A stretch of 64,000 nucleotides of DNA from Escherichia coli (GTDB lineage: Bacteria > Pseudomonadota > Gammaproteobacteria > Enterobacterales > Enterobacteriaceae). The translations under genes were made by a program, and so were the position numbers. The stretch lies in NCBI RefSeq assembly GCF_024700885.2, contig NZ_CP117016.1; one strand, 5' to 3'. This document shows positions 14,244 to 49,714 of this stretch, piece after piece. The first letter of the stretch is position 1. Every line of letters starts with the position of its first letter. The notes under the pieces are model-generated. The model was given only the letters and a program-made list of their open reading frames with translations, was not told the DNA's origin and ran no database searches.

Positions 14244-14255
14244 ACGCTACCGCCC
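14244..14255 (-). promoter_or_regulatory. ops-like element (RfaH recruitment site, JUMPstart) in the region 3 leader about 30 nt upstream of the kpsM start
   Basis: Minus strand reads GGCGGTAGCGTA, matching the ops core GGCGGTAG at the position expected ahead of kpsM. Confidence 0.65.
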
Positions 14256-14349
14256 TTGGCTTAACAGCTACCAATACACTGGAGGTAATGCTTATTTGTA
14301 ACTGGATAAAATTTACTCAGACGGTTTGACCTTTTTAATAGCCGCAAAA

Positions 14350-15923: not shown

Positions 15924-15924
15924 G

Positions 15925-17103
15925 TTATTTCCTCCGCAACGTTACGCCGCCGGAAACCGCATCACCCTCTTTCTGTAACGCGTCCTGTTGCACAACATAA
16001 TCTGCCGCCAGTGCGCTACGCAGTTTGTCGAAGCTGGCAAAGTTCGCAGCCCGTAGCTGAAGGTGAAGCGTCTGGCGTTTTTGATCAAAGGTGAAACCAC
16101 GCATTTCGATGTCGGAAAGTGACGCTGATTTCAGGGTACTGGCGATCGCTGACAATTCTGCGAGCAGCCGGGTATCGTCGGCCTGTGGGCGATATTTTTT
16201 CAGCGCCATCGTCACCTGAGAGCGTAAATTCACAATCCGCTTCTGCTCCGGGAATAGCGTTAAGAACTGTTTCTCCGCCTGGGTGCGGCTTTGCGCCACC
16301 TGTTCGCTGACGCTCCATAACGTCACGCCCCGTTCCACTACCAGCGCAACCAGAATCAGCAATATCGGCAGAATCATCACCCGCCAGCGCGCCCACTGTT
16401 TTCGGTAGCTGACACGAGGCTGCCACGGCCCTGTTAGCAGGTTCCCTTCCGGTTCGCCATAAGTGATAATGGCTGGCAGAGCCGTAACGGTCAGGCGTTC
16501 GGCGTCCGCACCAGCCCATGCAGACAGTTCTTCCGGTGCAATGCCGACCACGGTTAGTGAAAGCGGTATATCCTGCTCATTGAGCTGTGCGCGGAACATG
16601 ACCGGAGCCAGCGCCCGCCCGGCGCTCCATCCCCGGCATTCATCGATGCGGCAGATAACCCGTTGCGCATCGCCAGCCATAAACCCACAAGGAATAGACA
16701 TCCAGTCCGGCGCGACGGTAGCGCGGGTGATGCCGTTTGCCTGCAACCACTGCGCAATGTTGCGCATATGCTGCTGGTGAATCACAGCTACGGTTGCCAG
16801 TTGCTGGTCGATTTTCAACGGGGCGAAATGCAGTTCATCGATATCCTGGTTCAGCTCTTCTTCCAGCAAGGCGGGCAGAATCGTCGGTATCTGCTTGCGG
16901 GGCACATCAGGCAGTTCAACCTGCCAGACGCTGATCCATTCGCCGGGAATGTAGAGTCGAATCGCATCAGTTTGCAGCCATTGCTGGAGACATTCATCAG
17001 CAACGTCAGGCCAGATGCCGCACTCCACGTCGGCGGTACGACGCTGCCAACGGATGGGAGCGGAAGCGCAAAGCGGGAAAAAAATCTCAAGCATGGAACT
17101 CAC
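15925..17103 (-). CDS. gspL: Type II secretion system protein L
   Basis: 392 aa, bitopic with central TM; position between gspK and gspM. Confidence 0.8.
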   Translation of the reverse strand: MSSMLEIFFPLCASAPIRWQRRTADVECGIWPDVADECLQQWLQTDAIRLYIPGEWISVWQVELPDVPRKQIPTILPALLEEELNQDIDELHFAPLKIDQQLATVAVIHQQHMRNIAQWLQANGITRATVAPDWMSIPCGFMAGDAQRVICRIDECRGWSAGRALAPVMFRAQLNEQDIPLSLTVVGIAPEELSAWAGADAERLTVTALPAIITYGEPEGNLLTGPWQPRVSYRKQWARWRVMILPILLILVALVVERGVTLWSVSEQVAQSRTQAEKQFLTLFPEQKRIVNLRSQVTMALKKYRPQADDTRLLAELSAIASTLKSASLSDIEMRGFTFDQKRQTLHLQLRAANFASFDKLRSALAADYVVQQDALQKEGDAVSGGVTLRRK

Positions 17104-18077
17104 TCACTTTCTCCTGTCTGATGCCAGAGAACAGAAAAGTGTTGTGGGCCCATGCGGACAATTAACGAATTCATCGTCAGTTCAATCTCATTCACGGTGA
17201 TATCTGAACGCAGCCAGAAGTAATTGCTGTCCACGCTCAGGACGGTTTTTAGCTGTTTTTTAGTACGCTCATCGACGTCTGCAAGTAGCGGCTGAGCAAG
17301 AAACTGATCGACATCTTCCCAGCCCTTCGCCGGACGTTGTTGTAATAACGCCCGCGCCTGAACAGGGCTTAACCACGGGTCAAACAGCGCCTCAAGAATC
17401 ACACTTTGCGTGACATCTAATGTATTGATGTTGATTTGCTGGCGGGTCATCGGCAGCGCACAGACCAGCGGTTTCAGTTTTTGATAAAGTCCGGCGTCCA
17501 TTCCCTGCACCACGCGCATCTCGCTGATATCAGCCAGCGGTTGATTAGCGGCGTAAAACGGCACCGAACGGGCGAGATACTCGCTGTCTTCACGGCCCAG
17601 ACGCGTCTGCACGCTGCGGTCTTCGTCAATAAACTCCCACAGGCTTTCGGCTATCAGTTCGGCCCGATAAGCAGGCACATCGAGGCGCGAGATCAGGGCA
17701 ATCAGTTGTTGTACCGCGAGCGGACGCGACGCCGTCGTCGGCTGAGCGAGGGCATTCAGGTTAAAGCAGGTCTGTGCGTCACGCAGAGTGACGGCGATTT
17801 GCCCCTGCGGCAGTGGGAAAAAACGCGGGCCGGAAGCCCACGGCTGCGCCAGATGCACGCGCTTTTCATTTTTCAGGCTCAGACTGAGTGCGCTCAACGC
17901 CAGGCTTTCCGCACTGGCGCTGTACCACAGCGCCTGCTGGTACTCCTGCTGGCTGCGCGTTCGCCCAAGTTGTTGCTGCATTCGCCCGGAAAGCGTGATG
18001 GTCACCAGCATCATAACCGCCAGCAATACCAGCACCACGACCAATGCCATTCCGCGTTTTGGTGGTGAGGTGATCAT
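17100..18077 (-). CDS. gspK: Type II secretion minor pseudopilin K
   Basis: 325 aa; N-terminal hydrophobic pseudopilin-like segment (GMALVVVLVLLAVMMLV); operon position. Confidence 0.8.
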   Translation of the reverse strand: MITSPPKRGMALVVVLVLLAVMMLVTITLSGRMQQQLGRTRSQQEYQQALWYSASAESLALSALSLSLKNEKRVHLAQPWASGPRFFPLPQGQIAVTLRDAQTCFNLNALAQPTTASRPLAVQQLIALISRLDVPAYRAELIAESLWEFIDEDRSVQTRLGREDSEYLARSVPFYAANQPLADISEMRVVQGMDAGLYQKLKPLVCALPMTRQQININTLDVTQSVILEALFDPWLSPVQARALLQQRPAKGWEDVDQFLAQPLLADVDERTKKQLKTVLSVDSNYFWLRSDITVNEIELTMNSLIVRMGPQHFSVLWHQTGESE

Positions 18078-18679
18078 GATAATTGCGGCCCGCGTAACAA
18101 CCAGATGCGTTCAATCTCGCCCCATTGCGGCAAATGCAGGGTTATGCGTACTGCCACAGGAATCGCCTGCACTGATGACCAGCTCTCCTGCCAGCGCGTG
18201 CCGTCGTAGAACTGCAAACGGAGCGAATCCGCCGGGATTAATTTTTGCGTTGTTGGCTTCACGCTGCCTGCCGCATCGGTCAGTGGCCAGGCTAACCGTT
18301 CGAGATAACCACCATGAATGCGGTAACCGACGGTGAGCAGATTACTGCGCGGCAGACGCATCAACGGATTAACCACGCCGCCGCGCACAAAACGCATCCC
18401 TTCACTCTCAGACGCCAGCACGCCAGCGCCCGCCAGTAACGCTGGTTCACGCTGGCCCTGATCGCCTCTTACCGGACGCGGCATCATTTGTGTCAGATCG
18501 TGGTTCAAAAAACTCATCGTTTGCTGCATGAGGTTTAGTTTTTGATCGTGTCCGGCGACGGCGCTATTCACGCGTGTAACGCCGTTTGTCACCTGCTGCG
18601 CCATCAGTGCCAGTGAGGCAAAAATGGCTATCGCCACCAGCATTTCCAGTAACGTGAAACCAGCGCTAGCTCTTCTCAC
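18074..18679 (-). CDS. gspJ: Type II secretion minor pseudopilin J
   Basis: 201 aa; prepilin-type N-terminus GFTLLEMLVAIAIF. Confidence 0.85.
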   Translation of the reverse strand: MRRASAGFTLLEMLVAIAIFASLALMAQQVTNGVTRVNSAVAGHDQKLNLMQQTMSFLNHDLTQMMPRPVRGDQGQREPALLAGAGVLASESEGMRFVRGGVVNPLMRLPRSNLLTVGYRIHGGYLERLAWPLTDAAGSVKPTTQKLIPADSLRLQFYDGTRWQESWSSVQAIPVAVRITLHLPQWGEIERIWLLRGPQLS

Positions 18680-19047
18680 TGTTGGCCTCCCACGGCGCTA
18701 AACCAGGCGCGTCGTGACTGAATCACCGACGAAAAGTCTTCGTGACGGCTGACTTCAATATCCACCGCCTGAAGTAGCGCGTTACCGGTATTCAGCGGTG
18801 TGGTTCGCCAGTACCAGCGGCTTCCTGCCATATCACTCTCGCCCTGGTGCCTGACCGCTCGTTGTTCACGGGTCATCAGGTAAAGCAGCGCAGTCTGGTT
18901 TTCAGCTACCCAGCCCGCTACCGTTTTCTCCTCAAGGATTTGCTGATTACTCAGCGCACCGCTGGCAATCTGTAACACCGCCGTGGCAGCCAGCGCAAAA
19001 ATCGCCAGCGCGAGCATCACTTCCAGCAAGGTAAATCCGCGCTTCAT
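18676..19047 (-). CDS. gspI: Type II secretion minor pseudopilin I
   Basis: 123 aa; prepilin-type N-terminus MKRGFTLLEVMLALAIF. Confidence 0.85.
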   Translation of the reverse strand: MKRGFTLLEVMLALAIFALAATAVLQIASGALSNQQILEEKTVAGWVAENQTALLYLMTREQRAVRHQGESDMAGSRWYWRTTPLNTGNALLQAVDIEVSRHEDFSSVIQSRRAWFSAVGGQQ

Positions 19048-19607
19048 GGCATCCTCTCATCACATTGATTGAGGGATAACGCGCCATCGTGCGCCAGCTT
19101 TACCGCCCAACATGCGTTTTGCGCCGCCGAGTAGAAGCGCAGCGTAAACGGCGTGGCAGGTTCAAAAGGCGAAAAACGGATCTGCGGCGTCTTCTTTTTC
19201 GCCTCTTTTTGCAGCTCCAGTTCAATATCGTGCAGCGTCAGGCGACGGCGTTGCAGCTCCAGCGCATATTCCTTCTGCCAGATATCACTTCCGGGTTGTA
19301 ACAGCATTTGCACCTGTTTCGGCACCGTAACCTGTGCCGATAACCGGGTCGCAGAAACGGGCAACCATTGCCCGTGACGACGCTGCATAAACTGGTAACC
19401 TGGCGGGTCGATTAGCACACCGAGTGTTTGCCCTTCGATCACTGCCCTGTCCTTAAACTGCGCAAAGCGAGTCAGAAAATCCTGCGCCGCTTTTTTCGCA
19501 GGCGGCTCTGAAGCGGTCGCAAACGTCTGTACCACGCCCGCACTGGCAAGGCCGATAAGGAAAATCACCAGCATGATTTCCAGAAGTGTGAATCCGCGTT
19601 CAGGCAC
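19044..19607 (-). CDS. gspH: Type II secretion minor pseudopilin H
   Basis: 187 aa; prepilin-type N-terminus RGFTLLEIMLVIFLIG. Confidence 0.85.
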   Translation of the reverse strand: MPERGFTLLEIMLVIFLIGLASAGVVQTFATASEPPAKKAAQDFLTRFAQFKDRAVIEGQTLGVLIDPPGYQFMQRRHGQWLPVSATRLSAQVTVPKQVQMLLQPGSDIWQKEYALELQRRRLTLHDIELELQKEAKKKTPQIRFSPFEPATPFTLRFYSAAQNACWAVKLAHDGALSLNQCDERMP

Positions 19608-19610
19608 TGA

Positions 19611-20066
19611 TTACTGAAACTCCTGCAAATTCCAGTTACCGATATCTGCGCCAGCGCCCTCCCCGTTTTCCTGACCATCTGCTCCCAGGGTATAAACATC
19701 AAACAGCCCTTTTTCACCCGGGCTGAGATACTGATAATCATTGCCCCACGGATCTTTTGGCAGTCGTTTAATGTACCCACCGGTACGGTAGTTACGGGAA
19801 TCCGCCATATTGGCCGGTTGCTGGATCAGCGCCTCAAGCCCCTGTTCTGTGGTCGGATAACGCCCGTTATCCAGTCGGTACATATCCAGCGCATTCTCCA
19901 GCGCCACGATATCGCTGATGGCTTTTTGCCGATCCGCTTTCTCTTTATTGCCCAACAGGTTAGGCACCACCAGACTTGCCAGGACGCCAAGAATAACAAT
20001 CACCACCATCACTTCCAGCAGGGTAAAACCTGCCCGTGGTTTTTGTGTGCGGGATAACGAATTCAT
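19611..20066 (-). CDS. gspG: Type II secretion major pseudopilin G
   Basis: Prepilin N-terminus AGFTLLEVMVVIVILGVLASLVVPNL; start placed at MNSLSRTQK (the track ORF is 9 codons longer). Confidence 0.85.
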   Translation of the reverse strand: MNSLSRTQKPRAGFTLLEVMVVIVILGVLASLVVPNLLGNKEKADRQKAISDIVALENALDMYRLDNGRYPTTEQGLEALIQQPANMADSRNYRTGGYIKRLPKDPWGNDYQYLSPGEKGLFDVYTLGADGQENGEGAGADIGNWNLQEFQ

Positions 20067-20082
20067 GTGATAACTCCGTAAA

Positions 20083-36740: not shown

Positions 36741-37883
36741 TTAAATCTGCTTTTCATACAATCGGTAACGCTTGTACGGCTCCGCCCCAATGCGTTCCAG
36801 CATGTTATTCATGCCTGTATTGGTTTCGAGGATCCATGACATTTCCAGCGCATCGATCTTCCGGCGGGCAAACGGATCGCGTAAGGCTTCAATCAATAAC
36901 AGCGCAATCACCGGGCCGATGCGGCTAAACTGATACTCGTCCCGCACGCCCATCAGCGGTACTCGCGCAGTTCGCACACCGCTGACTTTTAAACGCCACA
37001 GCAATTTTGCCCAGCCGAAGGGAAAGAGCGATCCGTTCAGATCGGCAATCGCCTCGTTGATGTTTGGCAAGCCGACAATAAACGCGCAGGGTGCAGAATC
37101 AATCTCAGCGATGTAGATCATATCGTCCGGCACCAGATATTTAAGTTGATCGCCCATGGTCGCGAATTCATGTTCGGTAAACGGCACAAATCCCCAGTTG
37201 TGCTGCCAGCCAGAGTTGAAAATCTCACGCAGGATCTGCATCTCTTCGGCAAACCGCTGGCGATTGATGCAGCGAATGGTCACCTTCTTACGCACCTGAT
37301 CCATCAGTTTTTTTAGCGCCGGAGAGAAAGTGAGATCGGTTCGCTGCATCCACCACGCCAGTAAATCAATGCCTTTGTGATAACCCAATTGTTCAATATG
37401 CGCGGCATACCACGGTTTGCCATGTGGCATCATCGCACAGGGTGGTGTGTCAAAACCTTCAATCAGTAATCCGCTTTCCTGATTGATATTCAGGCTGAAA
37501 GGCCCGCTGATCTTACTTGCACCTTGTGACTTCAACCACGCTTCCGCTGCGCCAAACAACGCGGCAAAAACCTGCGGATCATCAATGGCGTCAATCATGC
37601 CGAAATGACCGGTATCTTCGCCGTAACGCTCACGGTGCAAGGTATCGATTTGCGCGGTAATTCGCCCAACTATCTGCCCGGCTTTTTTTGCCACCCACGC
37701 CTGCCAGATGATATGGTCCGTCCCCGGATTCTTCGTAGACAAATGCTCGCTGCGTTCAATGAATAAAGGGGGTATCCAGTTTGGATCATCGGGATAAAGT
37801 GATGACGGAAAAGCGATAAATGCCTTAAGGTCATTTTTATTAATTACTTTTTCAATTTTAATCATCAGCAGATCGCATTCCAT
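36741..37883 (-). CDS. yghO: YghO-family protein, candidate acyl-CoA N-acyltransferase (GNAT-like fold); possible lipid N-acyltransferase
   Basis: About 375-380 aa soluble protein divergent from the lipid operon; family assignment from memory; function inferred from genomic context only. Confidence 0.5.
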   Translation of the reverse strand: MECDLLMIKIEKVINKNDLKAFIAFPSSLYPDDPNWIPPLFIERSEHLSTKNPGTDHIIWQAWVAKKAGQIVGRITAQIDTLHRERYGEDTGHFGMIDAIDDPQVFAALFGAAEAWLKSQGASKISGPFSLNINQESGLLIEGFDTPPCAMMPHGKPWYAAHIEQLGYHKGIDLLAWWMQRTDLTFSPALKKLMDQVRKKVTIRCINRQRFAEEMQILREIFNSGWQHNWGFVPFTEHEFATMGDQLKYLVPDDMIYIAEIDSAPCAFIVGLPNINEAIADLNGSLFPFGWAKLLWRLKVSGVRTARVPLMGVRDEYQFSRIGPVIALLLIEALRDPFARRKIDALEMSWILETNTGMNNMLERIGAEPYKRYRLYEKQI

Positions 37884-38159
37884 ATCTCTGTGGATAACAA
37901 ATAATTAACGGTGACAAACAGATTGCAACAGCAACGAACGGCACCTTAATAATCAACCCAATGAATACAAACGACGAATAAATAGTATTTATTAATGATT
38001 ACGATAAGGTTAGAGACTACACAGAAGCGCCACAATGCCTTTTGTCGATTTAAGGCGACCGGACAAGGCTTCTTCTTAATATATTCACAAATTAAATATC
38101 ATTCACAATAAAAACAAAAAAACTCAAACTCATTATTTAAATCAATGTTCATTTTCACA

Positions 38160-38227
38160 CTGATGAAAATACTATCTCATTTATCTTTTATGCCTATATA
38201 ATCCACCGCATTATTGTCATTTTATTT
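38160..38227 (+). promoter_or_regulatory. Candidate promoter for the lipid-biosynthesis operon in the AT-rich yghO-divergent intergenic region
   Basis: TATAAT hexamer at about 38197-38202, some 25-55 nt upstream of the candidate start codons; AT-rich upstream tract. Confidence 0.3.
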
Positions 38228-39979
38228 TTGATATCCAATTTTTTCGTGGTGTATATGTCTAATAAAATCTTTACGCATTCCCTACCTATGCGCTATGCCG
38301 ATTTTCCAACGCTGGTTGATGCTTTGGACTACGCCGCTCTGAGTAGCGCCGGAATGAATTTTTATGACAGACGTTGCCAACTTGAAGATCAACTGGAATA
38401 TCAGACGTTAAAAGCGCGTGCCGAAGCTGGTGCGAAGCGGTTGTTATCGCTGAACCTGAAAAAAGGCGATCGCGTGGCGCTGATTGCCGAAACCAGTAGC
38501 GGGTTCGTAGAGGCTTTTTTTTCCTGCCAGTATGCCGGCTTAGTCGCCGTCCCGTTGGCGATTCCAATGGGCGTCGGTCAGCGGGATTCCTGGAGCGCCA
38601 AACTGCAGGGTTTACTGGCAAGTTGCCAGCCCGCAGCCATTATCACTGGTGATGAGTGGTTACCGCTGGTCAATGCCGCGACGCATAACAACAACCCCGA
38701 ATTACATGTTTTAAGCCACGCCTGGTTTAAGACATTACCGGAAGCCGATGTTGCGCTCCAGCGTCCAGTTCCGAACGATATCGCCTACCTCCAGTACACT
38801 TCCGGCAGCACCCGTTTTCCCCGTGGCGTCATTATCACCCATCGCGAAGTGATGGCTAATCTACGTGCTATAAGCCACGATGGCATTAAATTACGCCCTG
38901 GCGACCGCTGCGTCTCCTGGCTGCCTTTCTACCATGATATGGGACTGGTCGGCTTTCTCCTGACCCCCGTCGCCACGCAGCTTTCAGTAGATTATTTGCG
39001 CACTCAGGATTTTGCCATGCGTCCTCTGCAATGGCTTAAATTGATCAGTAAAAATCGCGGCACCGTTTCCGTTGCGCCGCCGTTTGGCTATGAATTGTGC
39101 CAGCGCCGCGTGAATGAAAAAGATCTCGCTGAACTGGATCTTTCCTGCTGGCGCGTCGCTGGTATTGGTGCAGAACCCATCTCCGCAGAACAACTCCATC
39201 AATTCGCTGAATGTTTCCGTCAGGTCAACTTTGACGATAAAACTTTCATGCCGTGCTACGGACTGGCAGAAAATGCGCTGGCTGTCAGCTTCTCTGATGA
39301 AGCTTCCGGGGTTGTGGTTAACGAAGTGGATCGCGACATCCTCGAATATCAGGGCAAAGCCGTCGCGCCGGATGCTGAAACACGCGCCGTATCGACTTTC
39401 GTCAACTGCGGTAAAGCGTTGCCGGAACATGGCATTGAAATCCGCAATGAAGCAGGTATGCCGGTCGCGGAACGTGTGGTAGGCCATATTTGCATCTCCG
39501 GCCCCAGCCTGATGAGCGGTTACTTTGGCGACCAGATTTCACAAGACGAGATTGCCGCGACGGGCTGGTTAGACACCGGCGACCTCGGTTATCTGCTGGA
39601 CGGTTATCTGTATGTCACCGGACGCATTAAAGATCTGATTATTATTCGTGGCCGTAATATCTGGCCGCAGGATATTGAATATATTGCGGAACAGGAACCG
39701 GAAATTCATTCTGGCGATGCGATTGCTTTTGTTACCGCCCAGGAAAAAATCATTTTGCAGATCCAGTGTCGGATCAGCGATGAAGAACGTCGCGGGCAGC
39801 TTATCCACGCGCTGGCAGCACGGATCCAAAGCGAATTTGGCGTGACCGCGGCTATCGATCTGTTGCCGCCCCACAGTATTCCCCGAACGTCCTCCGGCAA
39901 GCCTGCCCGTGCGGAAGCGAAAAAACGTTATCAGAAGGCTTATGCTGCAAGCCTTCATGTGCAGGAATCCCTGGCATGA
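38228..39979 (+). CDS. Fatty acyl-AMP ligase / acyl-ACP synthetase (adenylate-forming enzyme)
   Basis: About 575-583 aa; AMP-binding signature LQYTSGSTRFPRGV; C-terminal lysine region; the true start may be the ATG at 38255. Confidence 0.8.
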   Translation: MISNFFVVYMSNKIFTHSLPMRYADFPTLVDALDYAALSSAGMNFYDRRCQLEDQLEYQTLKARAEAGAKRLLSLNLKKGDRVALIAETSSGFVEAFFSCQYAGLVAVPLAIPMGVGQRDSWSAKLQGLLASCQPAAIITGDEWLPLVNAATHNNNPELHVLSHAWFKTLPEADVALQRPVPNDIAYLQYTSGSTRFPRGVIITHREVMANLRAISHDGIKLRPGDRCVSWLPFYHDMGLVGFLLTPVATQLSVDYLRTQDFAMRPLQWLKLISKNRGTVSVAPPFGYELCQRRVNEKDLAELDLSCWRVAGIGAEPISAEQLHQFAECFRQVNFDDKTFMPCYGLAENALAVSFSDEASGVVVNEVDRDILEYQGKAVAPDAETRAVSTFVNCGKALPEHGIEIRNEAGMPVAERVVGHICISGPSLMSGYFGDQISQDEIAATGWLDTGDLGYLLDGYLYVTGRIKDLIIIRGRNIWPQDIEYIAEQEPEIHSGDAIAFVTAQEKIILQIQCRISDEERRGQLIHALAARIQSEFGVTAAIDLLPPHSIPRTSSGKPARAEAKKRYQKAYAASLHVQESLA

Positions 39980-40890
39980 ATCAAACTGTCGCGGTGACGG
40001 GCGCTACCGGGTTTATCGGTAAATATATTATCGATAACCTGCTCGCCCGCGGCTTTCACGTTCGCGCATTGACGCGTACTGCCCGCGCTCACGTCAATGA
40101 CAATCTCATCTGGGTGCGCGGTTCTCTGGAAGATACTCATTCACTTAGCGAACTGGTTGCCGGAGCCAGCGCGGTGGTCCATTGCGCCGGACAAGTGCGC
40201 GGGCACAAAGAAGAGATTTTTACCCGCTGTAACGTTGACGGCAGCCTGCGACTGATGCAAGCGGCAAAAGAGAGCGGCTTTTGCCAACGTTTTCTGTTTA
40301 TCTCTTCGCTGGCGGCGCGCCATCCCGAACTCTCCTGGTACGCAAATTCCAAACACGTCGCCGAACAACGGCTGACCGCAATGGCTGACGAAATTACGCT
40401 GGGCATTTTTCGCCCGACAGCCGTGTATGGTCCCGGCGATAAAGAGTTAAAACCGCTGTTTGACTGGATGCTGCGCGGCCTACTGCCACGACTTGGTGCG
40501 CCAGATACACAGCTCTCTTTCCTGCACGTCACCGATTTCGCGCAAGCCGTGGGGCAGTGGTTAAGCGCCGAAACTGTACAGACGCAAACCTATGAATTAT
40601 GCGATGGCGTCGCCGGCGGCTATGACTGGCAACGCGTAAGACAGCTTGCCGCCGACGCCCGTTGCGGTTCCGTTCGAATGGTTGGTATTCCTCTGTCGGT
40701 ACTCACCTGCCTTGCGGATATCAGTACTGCGTTGAGTCGCCTGGCAGGTAAAGAACCTATGCTGACCCGCTCGAAAATTCGTGAATTAACCCACGCCGAC
40801 TGGTCGGCAAATAATAACCGTATTTCTGAAGATATTAATTGGTTTCCCGGGATTAGCCTGGAACACGCATTACGCAACGGGCTATTTTGA
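39976..40890 (+). CDS. NAD(P)-dependent epimerase/dehydratase-family reductase (extended SDR), candidate 3-keto reductase
   Basis: 304 aa; Rossmann motif VTGATGFIGKYI; YxxxK catalytic motif (YANSK); start overlaps upstream stop (ATGA). Confidence 0.75.
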   Translation: MNQTVAVTGATGFIGKYIIDNLLARGFHVRALTRTARAHVNDNLIWVRGSLEDTHSLSELVAGASAVVHCAGQVRGHKEEIFTRCNVDGSLRLMQAAKESGFCQRFLFISSLAARHPELSWYANSKHVAEQRLTAMADEITLGIFRPTAVYGPGDKELKPLFDWMLRGLLPRLGAPDTQLSFLHVTDFAQAVGQWLSAETVQTQTYELCDGVAGGYDWQRVRQLAADARCGSVRMVGIPLSVLTCLADISTALSRLAGKEPMLTRSKIRELTHADWSANNNRISEDINWFPGISLEHALRNGLF

Positions 40891-40921
40891 TTGTCTTGTT
40901 TAAAGGTGTGTTAACGTTTCT

Positions 40922-41170
40922 ATGGTAAATCGTGAAATAGTAATGGATTACATCCTTTCCTGTTTACAGGATTTGGTCGAAAACGGTGTGGAAATTAAGC
41001 CCGACAGCGATCTCGTCAACGATCTTGGCCTGGAGTCGATCAAAGTGATGGATCTCTTAATGATGCTGGAAGACAGATTCGATATTTCCATTCCTATTAA
41101 TATTCTGCTGGATGTCAAAACCCCTGCGCAATTAATGGAAACACTACTTCCATGGCTGGAGAATAAATAA
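40922..41170 (+). CDS. Dedicated acyl carrier protein
   Basis: 82 aa acidic protein with the phosphopantetheine attachment motif DLGLESIKVMDL. Confidence 0.75.
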   Translation: MVNREIVMDYILSCLQDLVENGVEIKPDSDLVNDLGLESIKVMDLLMMLEDRFDISIPINILLDVKTPAQLMETLLPWLENK

Positions 41171-42342
41171 TGGGGCTATACGATAAATATGCGCGCCTTG
41201 CTGGCGAGCGACTGCAATTTAGTGACAACGGGTTAACACCGTTTGGCACCTGTATTGATGAAGTGTATTCCGCCACCGAAGGTCGGATTGGCAATAAAAA
41301 AGTGATTCTGGCCGGGACCAATAATTATCTCGGTTTAACCTTTAATCATGATGCCATCGCCGAAGGTCAGGCAGCGTTAGCGGCCCAAGGCACCGGCACC
41401 ACCGGTTCTCGTATGGCAAACGGCAGTTATGCGCCGCATCTGGCGTTAGAGAAAGAGATCGCCGAGTTTTTTAATCGCCCTACCGCTATCGTTTTTTCAA
41501 CCGGTTATACCGCTAATTTAGGCGTCATCAGCGCACTTGCCGACCATAACGCCGTGGTGTTACTGGATGCCGACAGCCACGCCAGTATTTATGACGCCTG
41601 TTCTCTCGGTGGCGCGGAAATTATTCGTTTCCGCCATAACGATGCTAAAGATCTGGAACGGCGCATGGTTCGCCTCGGTGAACGGGCAAAAGAGGCGATT
41701 ATCATCGTTGAAGGCATCTACAGTATGCTCGGTGACGTTGCGCCGCTGGCGGAAATTGTTGATATCAAACGTCGTCTCGGTGGTTATTTGATTGTCGATG
41801 AAGCGCATTCGTTTGGCGTGTTAGGCGCAACGGGGCGCGGACTGGCTGAAGCCGTTGGCGTTGAAGATGATGTGGATATTATCGTTGGTACCTTCAGTAA
41901 AAGTCTGGCCTCGATTGGCGGTTTTGCTGTCGGTTCGGAAGCGATGGAAGTGTTGCGCTACGGCAGCCGCCCGTATATTTTTACCGCCTCTCCTTCTCCG
42001 TCCTGCATTGCGACCGTGCGCTCGTCGTTAAGAACCATTGCCTCACAACCAGAGTTGCGGCAAAAGCTGATGGATAATGCCAACCATCTGTATGACGGTC
42101 TGCAAAAACTGGATTATGAGTTAAGTTCACATATTAGCCCGGTAGTGCCAGTAATAATCGGTTCGAAAGAGGAAGGTTTACGCATCTGGCGCGAGCTTAT
42201 TTCGCTGGGCGTTTATGTGAATCTTATCCTGCCACCTGCCGCGCCTGCAGGCATCACGCTGCTGCGCTGTAGCGTAAACGCTGCCCACAGTCGTGAGCAA
42301 ATTGATGCCATCATTCAAGCGTTCGCTACTCTGAAGCAGTAA
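41170..42342 (+). CDS. PLP-dependent alpha-oxoamine synthase (serine palmitoyltransferase / 8-amino-7-oxononanoate synthase family)
   Basis: 390 aa; PLP-lysine motif GTFSKSLASIGGF and DEAHSFG motif typical of the AOS family; start overlaps the ACP stop. Confidence 0.8.
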   Translation: MGLYDKYARLAGERLQFSDNGLTPFGTCIDEVYSATEGRIGNKKVILAGTNNYLGLTFNHDAIAEGQAALAAQGTGTTGSRMANGSYAPHLALEKEIAEFFNRPTAIVFSTGYTANLGVISALADHNAVVLLDADSHASIYDACSLGGAEIIRFRHNDAKDLERRMVRLGERAKEAIIIVEGIYSMLGDVAPLAEIVDIKRRLGGYLIVDEAHSFGVLGATGRGLAEAVGVEDDVDIIVGTFSKSLASIGGFAVGSEAMEVLRYGSRPYIFTASPSPSCIATVRSSLRTIASQPELRQKLMDNANHLYDGLQKLDYELSSHISPVVPVIIGSKEEGLRIWRELISLGVYVNLILPPAAPAGITLLRCSVNAAHSREQIDAIIQAFATLKQ

Positions 42343-42348
42343 TGTGAG

Positions 42349-42378
42349 CCCGCTGTGGTGTTGCGCCACGGCGGGTTT
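42349..42378 (+). terminator. Rho-independent terminator at the end of the + strand biosynthetic operon, overlapping the 3' end of the convergent permease gene
   Basis: GC-rich inverted repeat cccgctgtgg-N7-ccacggcggg followed by TTT. Confidence 0.55.
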
Positions 42379-43456
42379 AATGTTGTCTGTCATACCAATA
42401 CACCAGGCTCAACGCCACCAGCACAAACGCTACCGGTAAACCGAGCGCGGTAACAGGTGCGCTCAACGCAAATAGCAATCCCAGATTGACCATGATTTGA
42501 TAGCTGATCCAGGTAAGTAAGCCCACGATGACGCCTACAGCGAGACGGCTACCCATCCCAGGCGAACGCGGGGCACTAAAGGTAAACGGCACAGCCAGCA
42601 AAATCATCGCCAGGGTCAGGATGGGTTGTCCCAGTTTTTCCCACAGTGCAAGGCGGTATTCGCTGCTGGGTTGCCCAGTTTCCTGCAAATAATGGATGTA
42701 ATGATTAAGTTGACGGACAGAAAAAGTATTTCCCGGCATCGATAACTCTTCAAGATTCATACTGGTGAAGGCCGATTGCCAGGCAAGATTATCTGATGTT
42801 TCCAGCGTTTCTTTGCCATTCAACCATTTTTTATGATTCACACCATGCAGGATCCATGTTTTGTCGTCTTCAATGGAGGCACTGCGTGCAAAAATGTAGG
42901 ATTCGAGCGAGAGATCGTCGCGATAATGAAATATCTCCACGCCCACAGGCTGGCCCTGCTCGTTCAGCGATTTCACCGTCACAAATTCATTACCGCGCCT
43001 GGCCCAAAGCATATTGCCGGTAATGTCATCGTCCTCCCCCAACGCGGTGGCAGTCGATTTGATTTGCAGCGCCTGTTGCTGCAATGGCGACGCCACCCAC
43101 TCATCTATCGCGCCTAACGAAACAGTCCACAATATCCCGGCAACCAGCGCCACCAGTGCAATACGGAAGATAGAAAACCCAGTGCTGCGAATGGCGGTAA
43201 GCTCACTGTTTTTCGATAACTGCCCCAGGCCAACAATCCCTCCCAATAATGCGATAAACGGCGAAAGTTCGACCAGTGTACGCGGTAAGGTCATCAGCAC
43301 CACCAGCACCGCCTGAGTCCAGCGATAACCGCCCGGGCTGACATCATCCAGTTCGTTAATCAGGTTGAAGGTGGTAAAAAGCGGCAGCAATAGCCCTGCG
43401 GCGGCGGCAAAACCGAGAAAGAGATGACGGATTAAATAGCGACTGAAAACATTCAT
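42377..43456 (-). CDS. LptG-like permease (YjgP/YjgQ family) paralogue
   Basis: About 359 aa from MNVFSRYLIRHLF; six-TM permease architecture with a periplasmic domain, as in LptF/LptG; start overlaps the upstream gene stop (ATGA). Confidence 0.7.
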   Translation of the reverse strand: MNVFSRYLIRHLFLGFAAAAGLLLPLFTTFNLINELDDVSPGGYRWTQAVLVVLMTLPRTLVELSPFIALLGGIVGLGQLSKNSELTAIRSTGFSIFRIALVALVAGILWTVSLGAIDEWVASPLQQQALQIKSTATALGEDDDITGNMLWARRGNEFVTVKSLNEQGQPVGVEIFHYRDDLSLESYIFARSASIEDDKTWILHGVNHKKWLNGKETLETSDNLAWQSAFTSMNLEELSMPGNTFSVRQLNHYIHYLQETGQPSSEYRLALWEKLGQPILTLAMILLAVPFTFSAPRSPGMGSRLAVGVIVGLLTWISYQIMVNLGLLFALSAPVTALGLPVAFVLVALSLVYWYDRQH

Positions 43457-44523
43457 CGGGAAAATTTCTGCAGCAAAGAGAAGTCGCGTGCGACCAGCAT
43501 CAGCAGGCCCATTAGCATGAGTCCGGGTACTAACCACAAACCAGGAATGAGGGGAATCGCGCCGTTAGCCACCAGCGTACGGCAGACGTCGCCGCCATAA
43601 AAAATGGCAATAAACAGCAACGTCAGTGGCAATAATGTTGAAAATCGCCCTTGCCGCGGTTTTACCCGACTTAATGAAATGGCCAGCAGCGCCATCAACA
43701 ATGCTGTCAGGCCACGGCTTTGTCGCCATTGCAGTTCGGCATGATCGGCTGGAAAGACGGAGCGCGCCAGCTCCGTGACCGATTTCGCTTTGCGTTTGAC
43801 GTTAGGGCTTTGATCCAGCGGATTCAGATGTAATTGCAGATTACGGTAGATCTGTTCGTTGTCGTCACGCCCCTGATGATCGAGAAGATAGGCAGTGCCG
43901 TTGTGCAACATAACAGTCGGTTTCTCAGGTGATGGGTCAACCACATCAACCGAACGGGCGCGGAAAATGCGGGTTCGATTGGCAGTAGAAGTATAAATCA
44001 GCGCGTCAGTCAGGCGATTATTATCCTGATCAACCGTCTGCGAAAGGATCATTCGTCCGTTATCGTTAGTGTTAAATTTCTTTGCCCGCAACTGGCGAAC
44101 ATCCAGCTCCGACTGTGACTGTTGCTCCAGTTGATAAATCTGCGCATAAGCCCACGGACGACCATACATCGACAGAAGGGTGACAAAAATACTTAGCGGT
44201 ATCGCCAGATAAAGAACGGCTTTGTACAAGCGTCCCGGACTGCCCCCCGCCGCGGAGATAGCGGTAATTTCCGAGTCGGTATACATTTGCCCTAGCGTCA
44301 CGCCAACTGAAGCATATAGTCCAACAGGTAACAGCATCTCCAGTGCAATCAGCACTTTGTAGAAAACGATATCCAGCACAACATCAAGAGCTAATGTCCC
44401 ATTTGCCGCTTCGGTCAGATAACGCTGTGCGGAGTAGCTGGCGAAAATAAAGATCAGAAACCCGACGATAATCAGCACCAGACGGCGCGTACCACGCATG
44501 ATGTAGTGTTCAACCAGCTTCAT
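43453..44523 (-). CDS. LptF-like permease (YjgP/YjgQ family) paralogue
   Basis: 356 aa; N-terminus MKLVEHYIMRGTRRLVLIIVGFLIF resembles LptF/LptG N-termini; paired with the downstream LptG-like gene. Confidence 0.7.
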   Translation of the reverse strand: MKLVEHYIMRGTRRLVLIIVGFLIFIFASYSAQRYLTEAANGTLALDVVLDIVFYKVLIALEMLLPVGLYASVGVTLGQMYTDSEITAISAAGGSPGRLYKAVLYLAIPLSIFVTLLSMYGRPWAYAQIYQLEQQSQSELDVRQLRAKKFNTNDNGRMILSQTVDQDNNRLTDALIYTSTANRTRIFRARSVDVVDPSPEKPTVMLHNGTAYLLDHQGRDDNEQIYRNLQLHLNPLDQSPNVKRKAKSVTELARSVFPADHAELQWRQSRGLTALLMALLAISLSRVKPRQGRFSTLLPLTLLFIAIFYGGDVCRTLVANGAIPLIPGLWLVPGLMLMGLLMLVARDFSLLQKFSR

Positions 44524-44553
44524 CTCGCTAACGCCCTAAATCCTTTGAATTTT

Positions 44554-45117
44554 TTATTCATTGATCAGTTTCTGCGCCAGCGCAATGACATGATCTACCT
44601 CTTCCGGCGTCAGGCTGCCGTCCTTTGCCCACTGAATTTGCCCGTCTTTATTCAGCACCAGAATGGTTGAACTCTGCTCCGGCAACCGCCAGGCAACGCG
44701 TCCCAGTCCATTGCCGTCAATAACGAATTGCGCCCACGGATAGCGGCGTTTATTTTTTTCGATTTTGCCAACGACAAAATAGCCAGTACCAAAGATGGCA
44801 TCATCGGTGTTCACAATGGTGGTGGGCTGAAAACGATCCTGCGGAAAGTTTGCCGCTTCAACCGCTTTAATTAACAGTGAGTTCTTTTTCTTCGCCGACT
44901 TACGCCCGGCGATATACTGAATAATGCGGACTTTTCCCGCCAGCTGTGTGCTGTTCCACTTTTGGTAGTGAATTTCGTCGTCGCTATTCAGAAGCAACTC
45001 ACCGCCTTCCTGGATATAAACAGGGGTAACCGTTTTGCCAGTGACGAAATTGTGTGCCTGCACACCCGGGGCTAAGAGCATGATAATCAGCGCAATAATC
45101 AAACGAGATGACATCAT
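44554..45117 (-). CDS. Periplasmic protein with signal peptide (possibly YtfJ-like family)
   Basis: 187 aa; cleavable signal MMSSRLIIALIIMLLAPGVQA; family assignment tentative. Confidence 0.5.
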   Translation of the reverse strand: MMSSRLIIALIIMLLAPGVQAHNFVTGKTVTPVYIQEGGELLLNSDDEIHYQKWNSTQLAGKVRIIQYIAGRKSAKKKNSLLIKAVEAANFPQDRFQPTTIVNTDDAIFGTGYFVVGKIEKNKRRYPWAQFVIDGNGLGRVAWRLPEQSSTILVLNKDGQIQWAKDGSLTPEEVDHVIALAQKLINE

Positions 45118-45125
45118 TGCTCCGG

Positions 45126-45950
45126 TTATAGCGGAAAACGCGAAATCAGCAGCTCTAAGCGCTGGCGAATATCGCTATCCAGCGCCACCGGTGCATCATA
45201 CGACTGGCGGTTTTCCATATCATCCGCCACCATGTCGTCGTGTTTATCCCCCATCAGGCCATTAATGGCGGCGAGGAAGCGGGAAATCTGTAACGCTTCT
45301 TTATTTTCAGGATCAAGCGATCTTAAGGTGTCGTAATAAGAAACCTGCTGGCTGATGATTTTTCGCACATCATGAAATTCCCTGCCGGTTAGTCGCGGTT
45401 TGGCAATTATCTCTTTCAGGGTATGCATTTGCTTTTGCCGATAGGCAATAAAACCGCTTACGCTTTCTAACTGGCTATGGCGTAATGAATAGTTCACCAA
45501 CGACCAGACCGGAGAGCTTAAATAAACCCGTAACAGGTTGCCGTAATACGACACAATATTTTTCTTACCGTTACGAAAGCCGTCCTGAAAACGCCCCAAA
45601 AAAACGGTCGTTTTGCCGAATAAAAATCCGGCCTGATGCTTCTTTAAATACAGCCGTTGCGCAAAGCGCAGATGCTTGTAGCGCGCTCGCATGTATTTAT
45701 ACTTTTTGCGCTCGTCTGTCGTCAGTTCATCGCCTTTCGCCTGTTTGCGGATTAAACGCAGTAGCTCCTGACGATTAACACCATCCAGCCAGAATTTCAG
45801 GCATAACGCGTAATTATCATGGATGATTTCGGTGGTACAACTTAGTGCGATAGTCGGCGGCAAACTGACCTGTGCATCAACGACATCATCTTCTTCAATC
45901 GCAACAAATAGACGCTCGCTAGCCTCAAGCGGGAAATATTTTCTCATCAT
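45126..45950 (-). CDS. Hypothetical cytoplasmic protein, basic and Lys/Arg-rich
   Basis: 274-aa ORF tightly packed between the flippase gene and the periplasmic protein gene; no motif recognised by eye. Confidence 0.5.
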   Translation of the reverse strand: MMRKYFPLEASERLFVAIEEDDVVDAQVSLPPTIALSCTTEIIHDNYALCLKFWLDGVNRQELLRLIRKQAKGDELTTDERKKYKYMRARYKHLRFAQRLYLKKHQAGFLFGKTTVFLGRFQDGFRNGKKNIVSYYGNLLRVYLSSPVWSLVNYSLRHSQLESVSGFIAYRQKQMHTLKEIIAKPRLTGREFHDVRKIISQQVSYYDTLRSLDPENKEALQISRFLAAINGLMGDKHDDMVADDMENRQSYDAPVALDSDIRQRLELLISRFPL

Positions 45951-47299
45951 CAGGATTTCTCTCCGGCTGCGTTATAAAGCAAGGAATGGCGCTGAAAAAA
46001 TGCCTTTAAGGTTGGAATTAGCGAGAGCACCACATCCAGACATTGCCCAGCGAAGTAAGCAAATGCAGCCCCCAGCACGCCAAACAGATGACAGAACATG
46101 AACAGCAATACGATGTAGCCGATTGAGGCGATGGTTTGCGCCACGAGAAAAGCACGCTGTTTTCCCGCCATCAATAGCAATGACTCCTGTGGGAAGCCCA
46201 GCATTGAAATCACAATTGCGCCTAGCATCACCTGAATCAGGTCATACGCTTCGAGATACTTAACGCCAAACACCAGCGAAATGAGTGGCTTGCCGACGAT
46301 CAACACCACGAGCGCCACCAGAATACCGATTCCGCCCGCCAGTAAACCGGACTTCACGCCTAACAACCACGGCCTGGTGGTGCGCGGATCTAAACGCATC
46401 ACCTCTGGGTAAAAACTTTTACCCAGCAAACCCGCTGGCGTTCCGGCGGCGTCGAAGAATGTCATGGCGATTTTAAATAACCCGGCGGCAGCGGGTCCTA
46501 ACACGATCCCCACCAACACTGTGCTGCACGAGTTACGCGCCGACCAGATGGAGTGGGCAATGTTGGTTGACCAGACAAAACTCCACGCGCCTTTAATGTG
46601 TCGGGCAGACTCAAACAGATTCAATTTGAAGGCGTTATGGATATTTCTGCGGCGTAATTCGCGCGCGGCAAACCACCAGTACATGGTGCCGCCAACCAGA
46701 TTCGATGCGTACCAGGCAATAACAAAACCCGCAAAACCAAAATCAAAATACCAGGCTACGACGCTCCCCGCTGCGCGCAGAAAAGGTTTCGTCGCCTGCT
46801 GTACAGCAATCAAATCGAAGCGATCTACCGCACGCAGAATGCCGGTCGGCGTGGAGGAAGCCATTGAAGGAATGAGCGTGCAATACAGCGCTGCCAGCCA
46901 AAAGCTTTGGTCATCCAGACCTAATGAATGGGAAAGAAAAGGGAGTAAGGCAATGCCGCCGACAATCGCCACCGCGCCGCTGACGATATCCAGCGAGAAG
47001 GAAAATGAGACGACATTGCGGAATTGCTGCGGATTATTGTTGGTTAATGCTGGTGTTCCGTACTGCACCACCAACTGCCATGTCTGAAACTTAATAAAAT
47101 CGCTGATCGACTTGGCGTACGATTGCACAATCACCAGTACGCCAAACATGGCGGGCGTCATCCCTTTACCGGCACACGAGAGCGCCAACAGACCTAGCAA
47201 GGCGCTCACGACATTACTGGAGCCTAACCAGGCGCTATTGCGAATAATGGTGCGAAACGCGCCATCTGCAAACCAATGTTTGATGTTAAAACCCGCCAA
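45950..47299 (-). CDS. yghQ: MOP-superfamily (Wzx-like) polytopic flippase/exporter
   Basis: 449-aa ORF, highly hydrophobic with many predicted TM helices; I recall the K-12 counterpart as yghQ; start codon uncertain. Confidence 0.65.
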   Translation of the reverse strand: MAGFNIKHWFADGAFRTIIRNSAWLGSSNVVSALLGLLALSCAGKGMTPAMFGVLVIVQSYAKSISDFIKFQTWQLVVQYGTPALTNNNPQQFRNVVSFSFSLDIVSGAVAIVGGIALLPFLSHSLGLDDQSFWLAALYCTLIPSMASSTPTGILRAVDRFDLIAVQQATKPFLRAAGSVVAWYFDFGFAGFVIAWYASNLVGGTMYWWFAARELRRRNIHNAFKLNLFESARHIKGAWSFVWSTNIAHSIWSARNSCSTVLVGIVLGPAAAGLFKIAMTFFDAAGTPAGLLGKSFYPEVMRLDPRTTRPWLLGVKSGLLAGGIGILVALVVLIVGKPLISLVFGVKYLEAYDLIQVMLGAIVISMLGFPQESLLLMAGKQRAFLVAQTIASIGYIVLLFMFCHLFGVLGAAFAYFAGQCLDVVLSLIPTLKAFFQRHSLLYNAAGEKS

Positions 47300-47344: not shown

Positions 47345-48103
47345 TTAAGTTAAACTTCGGCGGTCAGAAACGATGGCAACCAGAGAAACCGCCTTCTGTG
47401 CCTGTTCCAGCACTTCGCTGTAGGGCGCTCTGGAATCAATCTCAAGAATTTTTGTGCCGTTATAGCCAATCGTCGACATGACGCCGATTTTGTCCTGCAG
47501 CTCGGCATAGTCATGGTCAGGCTTGCGGGAGATGGCAGTATCAATATCAATCCCCAAACGAATGATTAATTCAGGACGGTATTGCGCCATTTTTTGGTAT
47601 AAACGCCGTTCGCGCTGCGCCAGAAACATGCTGATTTTCCCGGTCGCACGTTCGACGCCGATCCCCGGTCCGTCATAATAAAAGCCCGAAATTTCAGCCT
47701 GCGGGAAGCGATCGCTGACCACCAGAACGCCACTTTGCGCCAGTCGCTGAACCTTGCGTAGATTCGCCATTCTTCGCAGCGAGAAGCAGTACATAATCAC
47801 CGCCGCCCATAGCGCTGGAGATTTGGTTTTCATGCTTTGGGTTTTCGAGGATTTGGCCGCCAGTCGCCGTTCGAGCCAGACGCCAACCAACGGCAATCGT
47901 TTGATTGTGTCGCCGTCTTCGCCCGAGAGCAGCCCCAGATAGCGCCGCTCGGTTTGCCAGTGTTGTTGCAGCGATTTCACCAGGTCGGTGGTCAGTGTGG
48001 ATTTACCGGTGCCATCACACCCGACCACCGCAATCAGCCCCGGAATGTAGTTGGGCTGCGGCACGGTTGTACTATTAACAGTTTGTGTTTGTAGTGCATC
48101 CAT
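47345..48103 (-). CDS. yghR: P-loop NTPase, kinase-like (YghR/S/T family)
   Basis: 252 aa; N-proximal Walker A VVGCDGTGKST; DRF motif; no ABC signature motif seen. Confidence 0.7.
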   Translation of the reverse strand: MDALQTQTVNSTTVPQPNYIPGLIAVVGCDGTGKSTLTTDLVKSLQQHWQTERRYLGLLSGEDGDTIKRLPLVGVWLERRLAAKSSKTQSMKTKSPALWAAVIMYCFSLRRMANLRKVQRLAQSGVLVVSDRFPQAEISGFYYDGPGIGVERATGKISMFLAQRERRLYQKMAQYRPELIIRLGIDIDTAISRKPDHDYAELQDKIGVMSTIGYNGTKILEIDSRAPYSEVLEQAQKAVSLVAIVSDRRSLT

Positions 48104-48134: not shown

Positions 48135-48848
48135 TCAGGAAAGCACGGCGTGAATTGCGCGTAGTGACGCTTGCATAATTTCATCGGCTGGTTGCCGACC
48201 ATCCAGTTCAAGGATCTTTGCGCCATTGAATGTCAGTTGCGGCGTAACGGCGATTTTTTCCTGTAACGCTGCCAGTTGGTGGTCAGGTTTACGCGAAAAC
48301 GCGGTTTGTTCATCAATGCCAAGACGAATCAACAATACGGGCAAATAAGACGCCATCCATTGGTACAGCTTCAGCTCGCGCTGCCTTAACATTTTTATCC
48401 AACCGTTACCGCCCGTGGTTTTTGCCAATTGCGGGCCATCAAAGCGAAAACCCGGCACTTCAACCTGCGGGTAGCGGTCGGTGATGAGCAGATAGCCTTG
48501 CTGGCTTTTACACAACATTTTGCGAAACTTATACGCCCGCCAGCAGGAAAGCAGATAGATAACCAGCGCAGTAATATTGCCAGGCGGTGTTGAGGGCTTT
48601 TCGTGCACATGTGCCGCTTTACTTCGCAGATAACGCCCAAAAGGTGCGCCAATAACAGGGAGCTGTGAAATCCATTCGCCAATTCGCCCGGACGATTGCC
48701 CGAGATAAATGTGTTCTGTTGGCATTCTTGCTGCCAGTTCATTTACCAGGCTTGCCGTGAGGGTCGATTTACCTGAACCATCACATCCTACAATGGCAAT
48801 AACACGCACTGGCGTGGAATTAATTATTGACATATTACGTTGATTCAC
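48135..48848 (-). CDS. yghS: P-loop NTPase, kinase-like (YghR/S/T family paralogue)
   Basis: 237 aa; Walker A IVGCDGSGKST; DRYP motif; same architecture as yghR. Confidence 0.7.
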   Translation of the reverse strand: MNQRNMSIINSTPVRVIAIVGCDGSGKSTLTASLVNELAARMPTEHIYLGQSSGRIGEWISQLPVIGAPFGRYLRSKAAHVHEKPSTPPGNITALVIYLLSCWRAYKFRKMLCKSQQGYLLITDRYPQVEVPGFRFDGPQLAKTTGGNGWIKMLRQRELKLYQWMASYLPVLLIRLGIDEQTAFSRKPDHQLAALQEKIAVTPQLTFNGAKILELDGRQPADEIMQASLRAIHAVLS

Positions 48849-49021: not shown

Positions 49022-49714
49022 ATGCAGTCAATAACACCTCCATTAATTGCCGTTATTGGTAGCGATGGTTCAGGCAAGTCAACGGTGTGTGAACATCTCA
49101 TTACCGTTGTCGAAAAATATGGTGCTGCCGAAAGAGTTCATTTAGGAAAACAAGCCGGAAATGTCGGTCGTGCAGTGACAAAATTACCGTTGATGGGAAA
49201 ATCCTTACATAAAACAATTGAACGAAATCAGGTGAAAACAGCAAAAAAATTGCCTGGCCCTGTTCCGGCGCTGGTAATTACAGCGTTTGTCGCCCGTCGC
49301 TTACTGCGCTTTCGTCATATGCTTGCCTGTCGTCGTCGCGGGTTAATTGTTCTAACCGACCGTTATCCTCAGGACCAAATTCCTGGCGCTTACGATGGTA
49401 CAGTGTTCCCACCTAACGTTGAAGGCGGCCGGTTTGTCTCATGGCTGGCAAGCCAGGAACGTAAAGCATTTCACTGGATGGCGAGCCATAAGCCTGATCT
49501 GGTCATCAAACTCAATGTTGACCTTGAAGTTGCCTGCGCGCGTAAACCCGACCATAAACGGGAATCGCTGGCGAGGAAGATTGCAATAACGCCACAGTTA
49601 ACCTTTGGTGGTGCACAACTGGTTGATATCGATGCCAATCAGCCACTGGAAAAGGTGCTGGTTGATGCAGAAAAAGCGATTACGGATTTTATGACCGCGC
49701 GTGGTTATCACTAG
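49022..49714 (+). CDS. yghT: P-loop NTPase, kinase-like (YghR/S/T family paralogue)
   Basis: 230 aa; Walker [16 protein letters not shown] motif; divergent from yghS. Confidence 0.7.

Follow-up and report, generated by a model that had tools for sequence, protein, structure and literature searches.

A second LptF/LptG-type permease pair in the ceramide gene island of Escherichia coli

The stretch of Escherichia coli chromosome analysed here (the window: 64,000 nucleotides of contig NZ_CP117016.1, RefSeq assembly GCF_024700885.2) carries, amid genes for ceramide synthesis, two adjacent genes for paralogues of the lipopolysaccharide (LPS) transport permeases LptF and LptG. We term them lptF2 and lptG2. 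It is very probable that LptF2 and LptG2 are the transmembrane half of a second extractor of the LptB2FG type, belonging to the sphingolipid island of E. coli. An earlier note on this DNA, made from the sequence alone, had proposed a dedicated machine for a specialised lipid, and linkage of the pair to spt and other ceramide genes across about 40 genera supports that proposal. Both the concept and this locus are already in the literature, and the idea of the note is essentially the published model. What our comparative data add is the breadth of the linkage, invariant glutamates for LptB docking, and strong purifying selection.

Identity, ancestry and gene linkage of the pair

Both proteins exceed the curated NCBIfam cut-offs with nearly full-length coverage: LptF2 scores 316.9 bits against the LptF profile TIGR04407 (cut-off 230) and LptG2 304.3 bits against the LptG profile TIGR04408 (cut-off 240). 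Pfam PF03739 is on record for LptF2, and RefSeq names the genes lptF and lptG. By profile, predicted fold and coupling-helix glutamate (see below), the two belong to the LptF/LptG (YjgP/YjgQ, PF03739) permease superfamily, so that the note's description of two adjacent permeases of this family is correct. The longest open reading frame (ORF) for lptG2 starts at a GTG and spans 42377–43537; the RefSeq start is the ATG at 43456. With that ATG, the lptF2 stop and lptG2 start overlap in ATGA, as read directly in the sequence. The same −4 overlap recurs in 72 of 81 related loci, which makes the translational coupling claimed in the note plausible, and plausibly conserved across loci.

The pair is distinct from the core lptF and lptG genes, as the note had supposed. 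In K-12 the core locus, pepA-lptF-lptG, lies at 4.486 Mb; its DNA, with the core copies adjoining pepA, is found in 5425 of 5426 complete E. coli genomes. A 3-kb stretch with lptF2 and lptG2 is found in 4144 of the 5426 (76%). LptF2 and LptG2 share only 29% and 28% identity with the respective K-12 core proteins, and are not the orthologues of b4261 and b4262 at the pepA-lptF-lptG locus. Phylogeny against LptF and LptG, a check that the note had suggested, agrees with this. Neighbour-joining trees set the F2 clade apart from the E. coli and Pseudomonas aeruginosa core LptF in 40 of 40 bootstraps, and G2 apart from core LptG in 23 of 40.

Close homologues of LptF2, with 62–79% identity, occur in many Enterobacterales, all of them named "LptF" by their sources. 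To survey more widely, an F2 profile built from 12 sequences was run against one genome per GTDB species. This yielded 80 loci in about 40 genera, all of them gamma-, beta- or deltaproteobacterial. Among them are Escherichia, Citrobacter, Hafnia, Serratia, Erwinia, Pantoea, Pseudomonas and Azotobacter, and further loci came from Nitrococcus, Nitrosospira, Salinisphaera, a betaproteobacterial metagenome-assembled genome (MAG), deltaproteobacterial MAGs and others. G2 was adjacent to F2 in all 80. Within flanks of up to 10 kb, at least one ceramide gene was present at 68 loci, spt at 62, and all five ceramide genes at 51; of the 12 loci without ceramide genes, nine have truncated flanks on the side that matters. 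At most loci yghO accompanies F2G2, and beside very distant pairs it is the ceramide gene that most often persists, with 48–50% identity in deltaproteobacterial, Nitrosospira and Nitrospirales loci.

The linkage persists even where gene order changes, as it does between Enterobacterales and Pseudomonas/Azotobacter. Pseudomonas-type loci keep yghO, aasR, cerR, acpR, spt, lptF2 and lptG2, and lack ytfJ' (a YtfJ-family paralogue), a gene for a 274-aa protein, and yghQ, all three of which are found in the E. coli island. In their place are an MsbA/HepA-like fused ABC exporter, an NTP-transferase, a YegS/DAGK-like lipid kinase (possibly CpgB-like, CpgB being the ceramide kinase of Caulobacter) and an OlsC-like acyl hydroxylase. 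This suggests that in Pseudomonas-type loci the same extractor would receive a lipid with another head group, from another flippase. Given the separate clade and the persistent linkage, we interpret the pair as an old paralogous lineage travelling with sphingolipid genes rather than as a recent duplication.

Against two other Escherichia species, the ratio of non-synonymous to synonymous substitution rates (dN/dS) was 0.045–0.058 for lptF2 and lptG2. The value for spt was similar, and the whole island gave about 0.05. Such ratios are the mark of strong purifying selection on the pair. Protein clusters of lptF2 are dominated by full-length 356-aa forms (5440 and 242 members); shortened variants also exist, including some of 238–270 aa in Shigella boydii.

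Predicted fold and the source of energy

AlphaFold2 models of both proteins show six transmembrane helices, a coupling helix, and a periplasmic beta-jellyroll between the third and fourth transmembrane helices, a domain on which the note's proposal had depended. For LptF2 (predicted local distance difference test score, pLDDT, 86.5) the coupling helix is at residues 85–91 and the jellyroll at about 150–232; for LptG2 (pLDDT 84.6) the jellyroll strands are at about 150–227. The best Foldseek matches of LptF2 in the PDB are LptF chains, with a TM-score of 0.77 to 9dok_F, and LptG2 matched 6mit_G with a TM-score of 0.85 and a root-mean-square deviation of 3.1 Å; these alignments span about 357–366 columns. 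Strong matches in the PDB, by sequence and by fold, were to solved LptF and LptG chains only. The periplasmic domains also gave weak Foldseek sub-matches to LptA and LptC.

Binding of LptB by the core proteins requires a glutamate in each coupling helix, E84 of LptF and E88 of LptG (PMC5082905). E85 of LptF2 aligns to the former and E85 of LptG2 to the latter, and this glutamate is invariant in the family (80 of 80 F2 and 78 of 78 G2 sequences). The coupling-helix segments as a whole are identical to those of the core copies at 12 of 23 positions for F and 9 of 23 for G. We also compared the cavity, using the LPS-contacting residues of Shigella LptB2FG (PMC6744409). Four cationic positions are kept in F2 and G2 (F R34, F R315, G R59 and G K133), a positive ring that would be compatible with an anionic lipid head group. 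At the positions of core LptG K34, K40 and K41, G2 has N/D, D/E and D.

No LptB-, LptC- or LptA-like gene was found near lptF2 and lptG2. A tblastn search of the window with LptB revealed no dedicated lptB paralogue at the locus; the sole ABC ATPase gene in the 64 kb is kpsT (12785–13441), whose product is 25% identical to LptB. We rejected KpsT as the partner, as it is paired with kpsM in the capsule-locus kpsMT, 30 kb away. The note was thus right that no LptB-like ATPase gene lies beside the pair, yet the "orphan" status that it emphasised is not unusual, because core lptFG are likewise unlinked to lptB: core lptB belongs to lptC-lptA-lptB at 3.344 Mb, a distance of 1.14 Mb from them.

Published work on Caulobacter points to a borrowed ATPase, one of two sources that the note had offered. 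Olea-Ozuna et al. (2024) gave LptC2, LptF2 and LptG2 of the Caulobacter sphingolipid region their names and suggested that they transport sphingolipids selectively (PMC11324152). In an April 2026 preprint, Uchendu, Isom and Klein report that deletion of Caulobacter lptF2 and lptG2 succeeds only in strains lacking spt or the ceramide kinase gene cpgB, that each of LptF2 and LptG2 co-purifies with the other and with the single LptB, and that they are required only when the anionic sphingolipid ceramide diphosphoglycerate is made (bioRxiv 10.64898/2026.04.12.717747). The F2-G2 complex, its binding of LptB and the conditional lethality are thus results from Caulobacter; for E. coli, the invariant docking glutamate is consistent with the same source of power. 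Fig. 2B of the same preprint draws the sphingolipid operons of E. coli UTI89, whose gene order matches that of our window exactly; LptF2 and LptG2 of the window are 97–99% identical to their UTI89 counterparts (354 of 356 residues for F2, 350 of 359 for G2). E. coli loci are unmentioned in PMC11087976.

We propose the following route for E. coli. Ceramide would be built in the cytoplasm and inner leaflet by AasR, AcpR, Spt, the SDR-family reductase and YghO, and its head group probably modified by products of yghQRST, ytfJ' and the 274-aa gene. The lipid would then cross the inner membrane by way of a flippase, for which the MOP-type YghQ is the candidate. The LptF2-LptG2 heterodimer would take it laterally into the cavity and push it up into the periplasmic beta-jellyrolls, powered by the only LptB dimer of the cell, which would dock on the two conserved coupling helices. 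Onward transfer would probably use the ordinary LptC/LptA/LptDE bridge.

Dispensability and rival explanations

Several points weigh against a sphingolipid extractor in E. coli. Our literature searches found no report of a chemically detected E. coli sphingolipid, and the locus is missing from K-12 and from 24% of complete E. coli genomes. Transposon-directed insertion site sequencing (TraDIS) of UTI89 gave 293 essential genes, which include the core yjgP and yjgQ and none of UTI89_C3396–C3403; C3401, which corresponds by position to lptG2, has insertions. Unlike core lptFG, and unlike the pair in Caulobacter, lptF2 and lptG2 are thus dispensable in LB and laboratory media. This may mean either that the island is silent in the laboratory or that its product is tolerated in the inner membrane. 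On the comparative side, the grouping of the E. coli pair with Caulobacter CCNA_01214/CCNA_01213 is taken from Fig. 2B and the text of the preprint, and our trees include only two core sequences for each family. Those F2-like genes that are most distant, in Geobacter and Methylothermaceae MAGs, have no ceramide genes nearby; these genes may be the ordinary LptFG of those organisms. We also dropped the loss of LptG K34, K40 and K41 as a signature of a substrate switch, because core LptG of P. aeruginosa lacks these lysines too.

Some of these points would also suit an island that is an evolutionary leftover in E. coli, its genes intact but silent and the pair idle. K-12, which lost the region via IS5, is viable. 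The missing 24%, the shortened lptF2 variants of S. boydii and others, the TraDIS result and the lack of a reported lipid all fit. Rich-medium dispensability is nonetheless what one would expect of an accessory envelope lipid. Against a leftover stand the dN/dS of both genes and the whole island, the dominance of full-length forms, and the activity demonstrated for the E. coli BL21 enzymes Spt (with acyl-AcpR), AcpR and AasR (PMC9386255). We consider a leftover unlikely. Still less likely is that the pair serves as a spare or condition-specific LPS exporter, for a modified lipid A or an LPS glycoform, unrelated to the ceramide genes. Passing the NCBIfam equivalog cut-offs, the RefSeq names and the several LPS-phosphate-binding cationic positions retained would suit such a role; against it, core lptFG are in essentially every genome, the pair forms a clade of its own and travels with ceramide genes in two gene orders, and in Caulobacter the need for it depends on sphingolipid synthesis.

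The second energy source offered by the note was the adjacent P-loop proteins, and it does not hold up. YghR, YghS and YghT, encoded in or next to the minus-strand gene string of the pair, have Walker A motifs (GCDGTGKS, GCDGSGKS and GSDGSGKS, respectively). None of the three has the ABC signature motif (LSGGQ), and YghR has no match to PF00005 (ABC_tran). All three instead match thymidylate-kinase-like profiles weakly, far below the dTMP-kinase cut-offs; RefSeq labels YghS and YghT "dTMP kinase". From these motifs and profiles we class them as kinase-like proteins, not transporter nucleotide-binding domains. F2G2 is kept at many loci of Pseudomonas, Azotobacter and more distant groups that have no YghR/S/T homologue nearby. 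With the LptB-binding glutamate invariant and LptB pulled down by the Caulobacter pair, it is hardly credible that YghR, YghS or YghT energises the pair in place of LptB. Their genes are conserved together with the island, with weak homologues in some Pseudomonas loci, and the proteins may be head-group kinases. We rejected them as ceramide kinases of the CpgB type: they are P-loop proteins, whereas CpgB is of the diacylglycerol/ceramide-kinase type, reportedly with sphingosine-kinase conserved domains and a GGDG motif.

Returning to a sphingolipid extractor, we tentatively extend the proposal, at slightly less than an even chance, as follows: most natural E. coli, K-12 excepted, would make a surface-exposed, probably anionic ceramide-derived lipid under some condition, and LptF2G2 would export it, time-sharing LptB and LptC/A/DE with the LPS exporter. 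Export of sphingolipid and of LPS would in that case draw on a single motor, for which they would compete, in the best-studied Gram-negative model. In a bolder variant, the co-transcribed and probably periplasmic YtfJ paralogue and the 274-aa protein may be dedicated accessory factors of an Enterobacterales route. If the pair works as we infer, LptB drives in wild-type E. coli a second route of lipid export to the outer membrane, and E. coli would lend itself to the genetic study of sphingolipid transport in bacteria. Both LptB and the Lpt bridge are targets of antibiotics, and zosurabalpin-bound LptB2FG structures are among the PDB matches.

Surrounding genes and comparison with known systems

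Features of the island are listed in Table 1. As the note had it, the pair lies inside a lipid cluster, with ceramide genes on one side and ytfJ', the 274-aa gene and yghQRST on the other. The five ceramide genes (yghO, aasR, cerR/epi, acpR and spt) are those described for dihydroceramide synthesis in E. coli BL21(DE3) (PMC9386255). In the window, yghO is divergent from, and upstream of, the plus-strand string aasR-SDR-acpR-spt. The end of spt is 34 bp from lptG2 in convergent orientation, and the hairpin between them is likely, from its sequence, to be a bidirectional terminator. Upstream of lptF2 the minus-strand genes ytfJ', 274-aa, yghQ, yghR and yghS follow one another with gaps of at most 45 bp; yghT is divergent.

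YghO matched no Pfam or NCBIfam profile. In K-12 it is labelled "putative DNA-binding transcriptional regulator"; the Geiger laboratory equates yghO with the ceramide N-acyltransferase gene aca, a homologue of CC_1154 (PMC9386255). The YtfJ' N-terminus is hydrophobic and signal-peptide-like, as judged by eye from the translation, and the 274-aa protein is charged and probably cytoplasmic. The genes for these two proteins have dN/dS of 0.06–0.10 and are confined to Enterobacterales-type loci.

Table 1. Coordinates of the permease pair and of the island around it
Feature	Description	Position	Strand	Basis
lptF2	LptF paralogue, 356 aa	43453–44523	−	TIGR04407
lptG2	LptG paralogue, 359 aa from ATG at 43456	42377–43456	−	TIGR04408
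ATGA	overlap of lptF2 stop and lptG2 start	43453–43456	−	read directly in sequence
yghO	presumptive ceramide N-acyltransferase (aca/bCerS homologue)	36741–37883	−	aca, "yghO ECD_02850", PMC9386255 Fig. 9
aasR	fatty acyl-AMP ligase/acyl-AcpR synthetase	38228–39979 (RefSeq start 38255)	+	NF006624, 871.5 bits; ECD_02851
cerR/epi	SDR/epimerase-family reductase	39976–40890	+	NAD-dependent epimerase family matches; ECD_02852 "epi", PMC9386255
acpR	specialised acyl carrier protein (ACP)	40922–41170	+	ACP profiles; ECD_02853, PMC9386255
spt	serine palmitoyltransferase	41170–42342	+	NF047599, 595.8 bits (cut-off 500); orthologue ECD_02854
hairpin	16-bp stem between convergent spt and lptG2 stops	42345–42379	+	terminator-like scan, consensus match only
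ytfJ'	YtfJ-family paralogue	44554–45117	−	TIGR01626, 215 bits; 30 bp upstream of lptF2
274-aa gene	274-aa protein, family-less	45126–45950	−	no Pfam/NCBIfam match; dN/dS 0.06
yghQ	MOP-superfamily flippase-like membrane protein	45950–47299	−	weak MOP flippase matches; IS5-truncated in K-12
yghR	P-loop kinase-like	47345–48103	−	Thymidylate_kin, E 3e-4; Walker A, no LSGGQ
yghS	P-loop kinase-like paralogue	48135–48848	−	Walker A
yghT	third P-loop kinase-like paralogue	49022–49714	+	Walker A

Comparison of K-12 (NC_000913.3 3130146–3131340) with window positions 37883–46230 shows what was lost in that strain. The segment replaced by IS5 starts with the acyl-AMP ligase gene, takes in spt, lptG2, lptF2, ytfJ' and the 274-aa gene, and includes the 5' part of yghQ. 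The remnants of the island are yghO, truncated yghQ and yghRST. K-12 is thus a natural deletion mutant for the ceramide-synthesis and transport genes of this envelope pathway.

The window as a whole is E. coli chromosome and includes, besides the yghO-yghT region, a kps capsule locus, the beta type II secretion system (T2SS-beta), sslE, glc, pitB, gss and hyb. The group-2 capsule locus (35–14274) comprises part of kpsE, then kpsD, kpsU, kpsC, kpsS, a serotype-specific region, kpsT and kpsM. The serotype-specific region (6575–12525) is low in GC, at 31–36%, and encodes a ribitol-5-phosphate cytidylyltransferase/SDR fusion, a 378-aa protein and an 1107-aa protein, the latter two with no NCBIfam match. 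The T2SS-beta cluster (gspM to gspF, 15387–21306) ends, within the stretch 21306–22250, in a gspE ORF that covers the C-terminal half only (profile positions 241–486 of 486), with sslE directly after. None of the 5426 complete E. coli genomes covers this gspE-sslE junction. Strain MLI114 is 100% identical to the window in the gspF-gspE stretch and the lptFG region, and has about 5 kb between gspE and sslE. From the canonical T2SS-beta order, we presume that these 5 kb hold pppA, yghG, gspC, gspD and the 5' part of gspE. The sequence breaks at about 22051/22052, owing either to a deletion specific to this strain or to a join made in assembly.

Among known systems, the closest parallel is LptF2/LptG2 of Caulobacter crescentus (CCNA_01214/CCNA_01213; CC_1156/CC_1155), likewise a second pair beside core copies, located in a sphingolipid synthesis locus without a dedicated lptB, and with the same predicted LptFG fold. 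The two differ in accessory genes. E. coli has no lptC2, which is restricted to Caulobacter according to the preprint (bioRxiv 10.64898/2026.04.12.717747), and it has yghQ, yghRST, ytfJ' and the 274-aa gene where Caulobacter has cpgABC and glycosyltransferases. By NCBIfam type, the Spt of E. coli is beta-proteobacterial rather than alpha. The UTI89 pair is dispensable in LB, whereas the Caulobacter pair is essential when sphingolipid is produced.

With the canonical E. coli LptB2FGC (LptF b4261, LptG b4262, LptB b3201; PDB 6MHU, 6MI7 and 6MIT), the pair shares the fold of each subunit, the coupling-helix glutamate, the F-then-G gene order, the stop/start overlap and the lack of linkage to lptB. 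It differs in its low sequence identity, separate clade and replaced LptG lysines, and in being accessory, non-essential and set amid ceramide genes, where the core genes are universal, essential and beside pepA. A third system, the LptFG homologues of Sphingomonas wittichii, is likewise linked to sphingolipid synthesis and adjoins the spt operon (bioRxiv 10.64898/2026.04.12.717747). There they are the sole LptFG of an LPS-free organism, whereas the E. coli pair coexists with the LPS pair, with which it would share LptB and the bridge.

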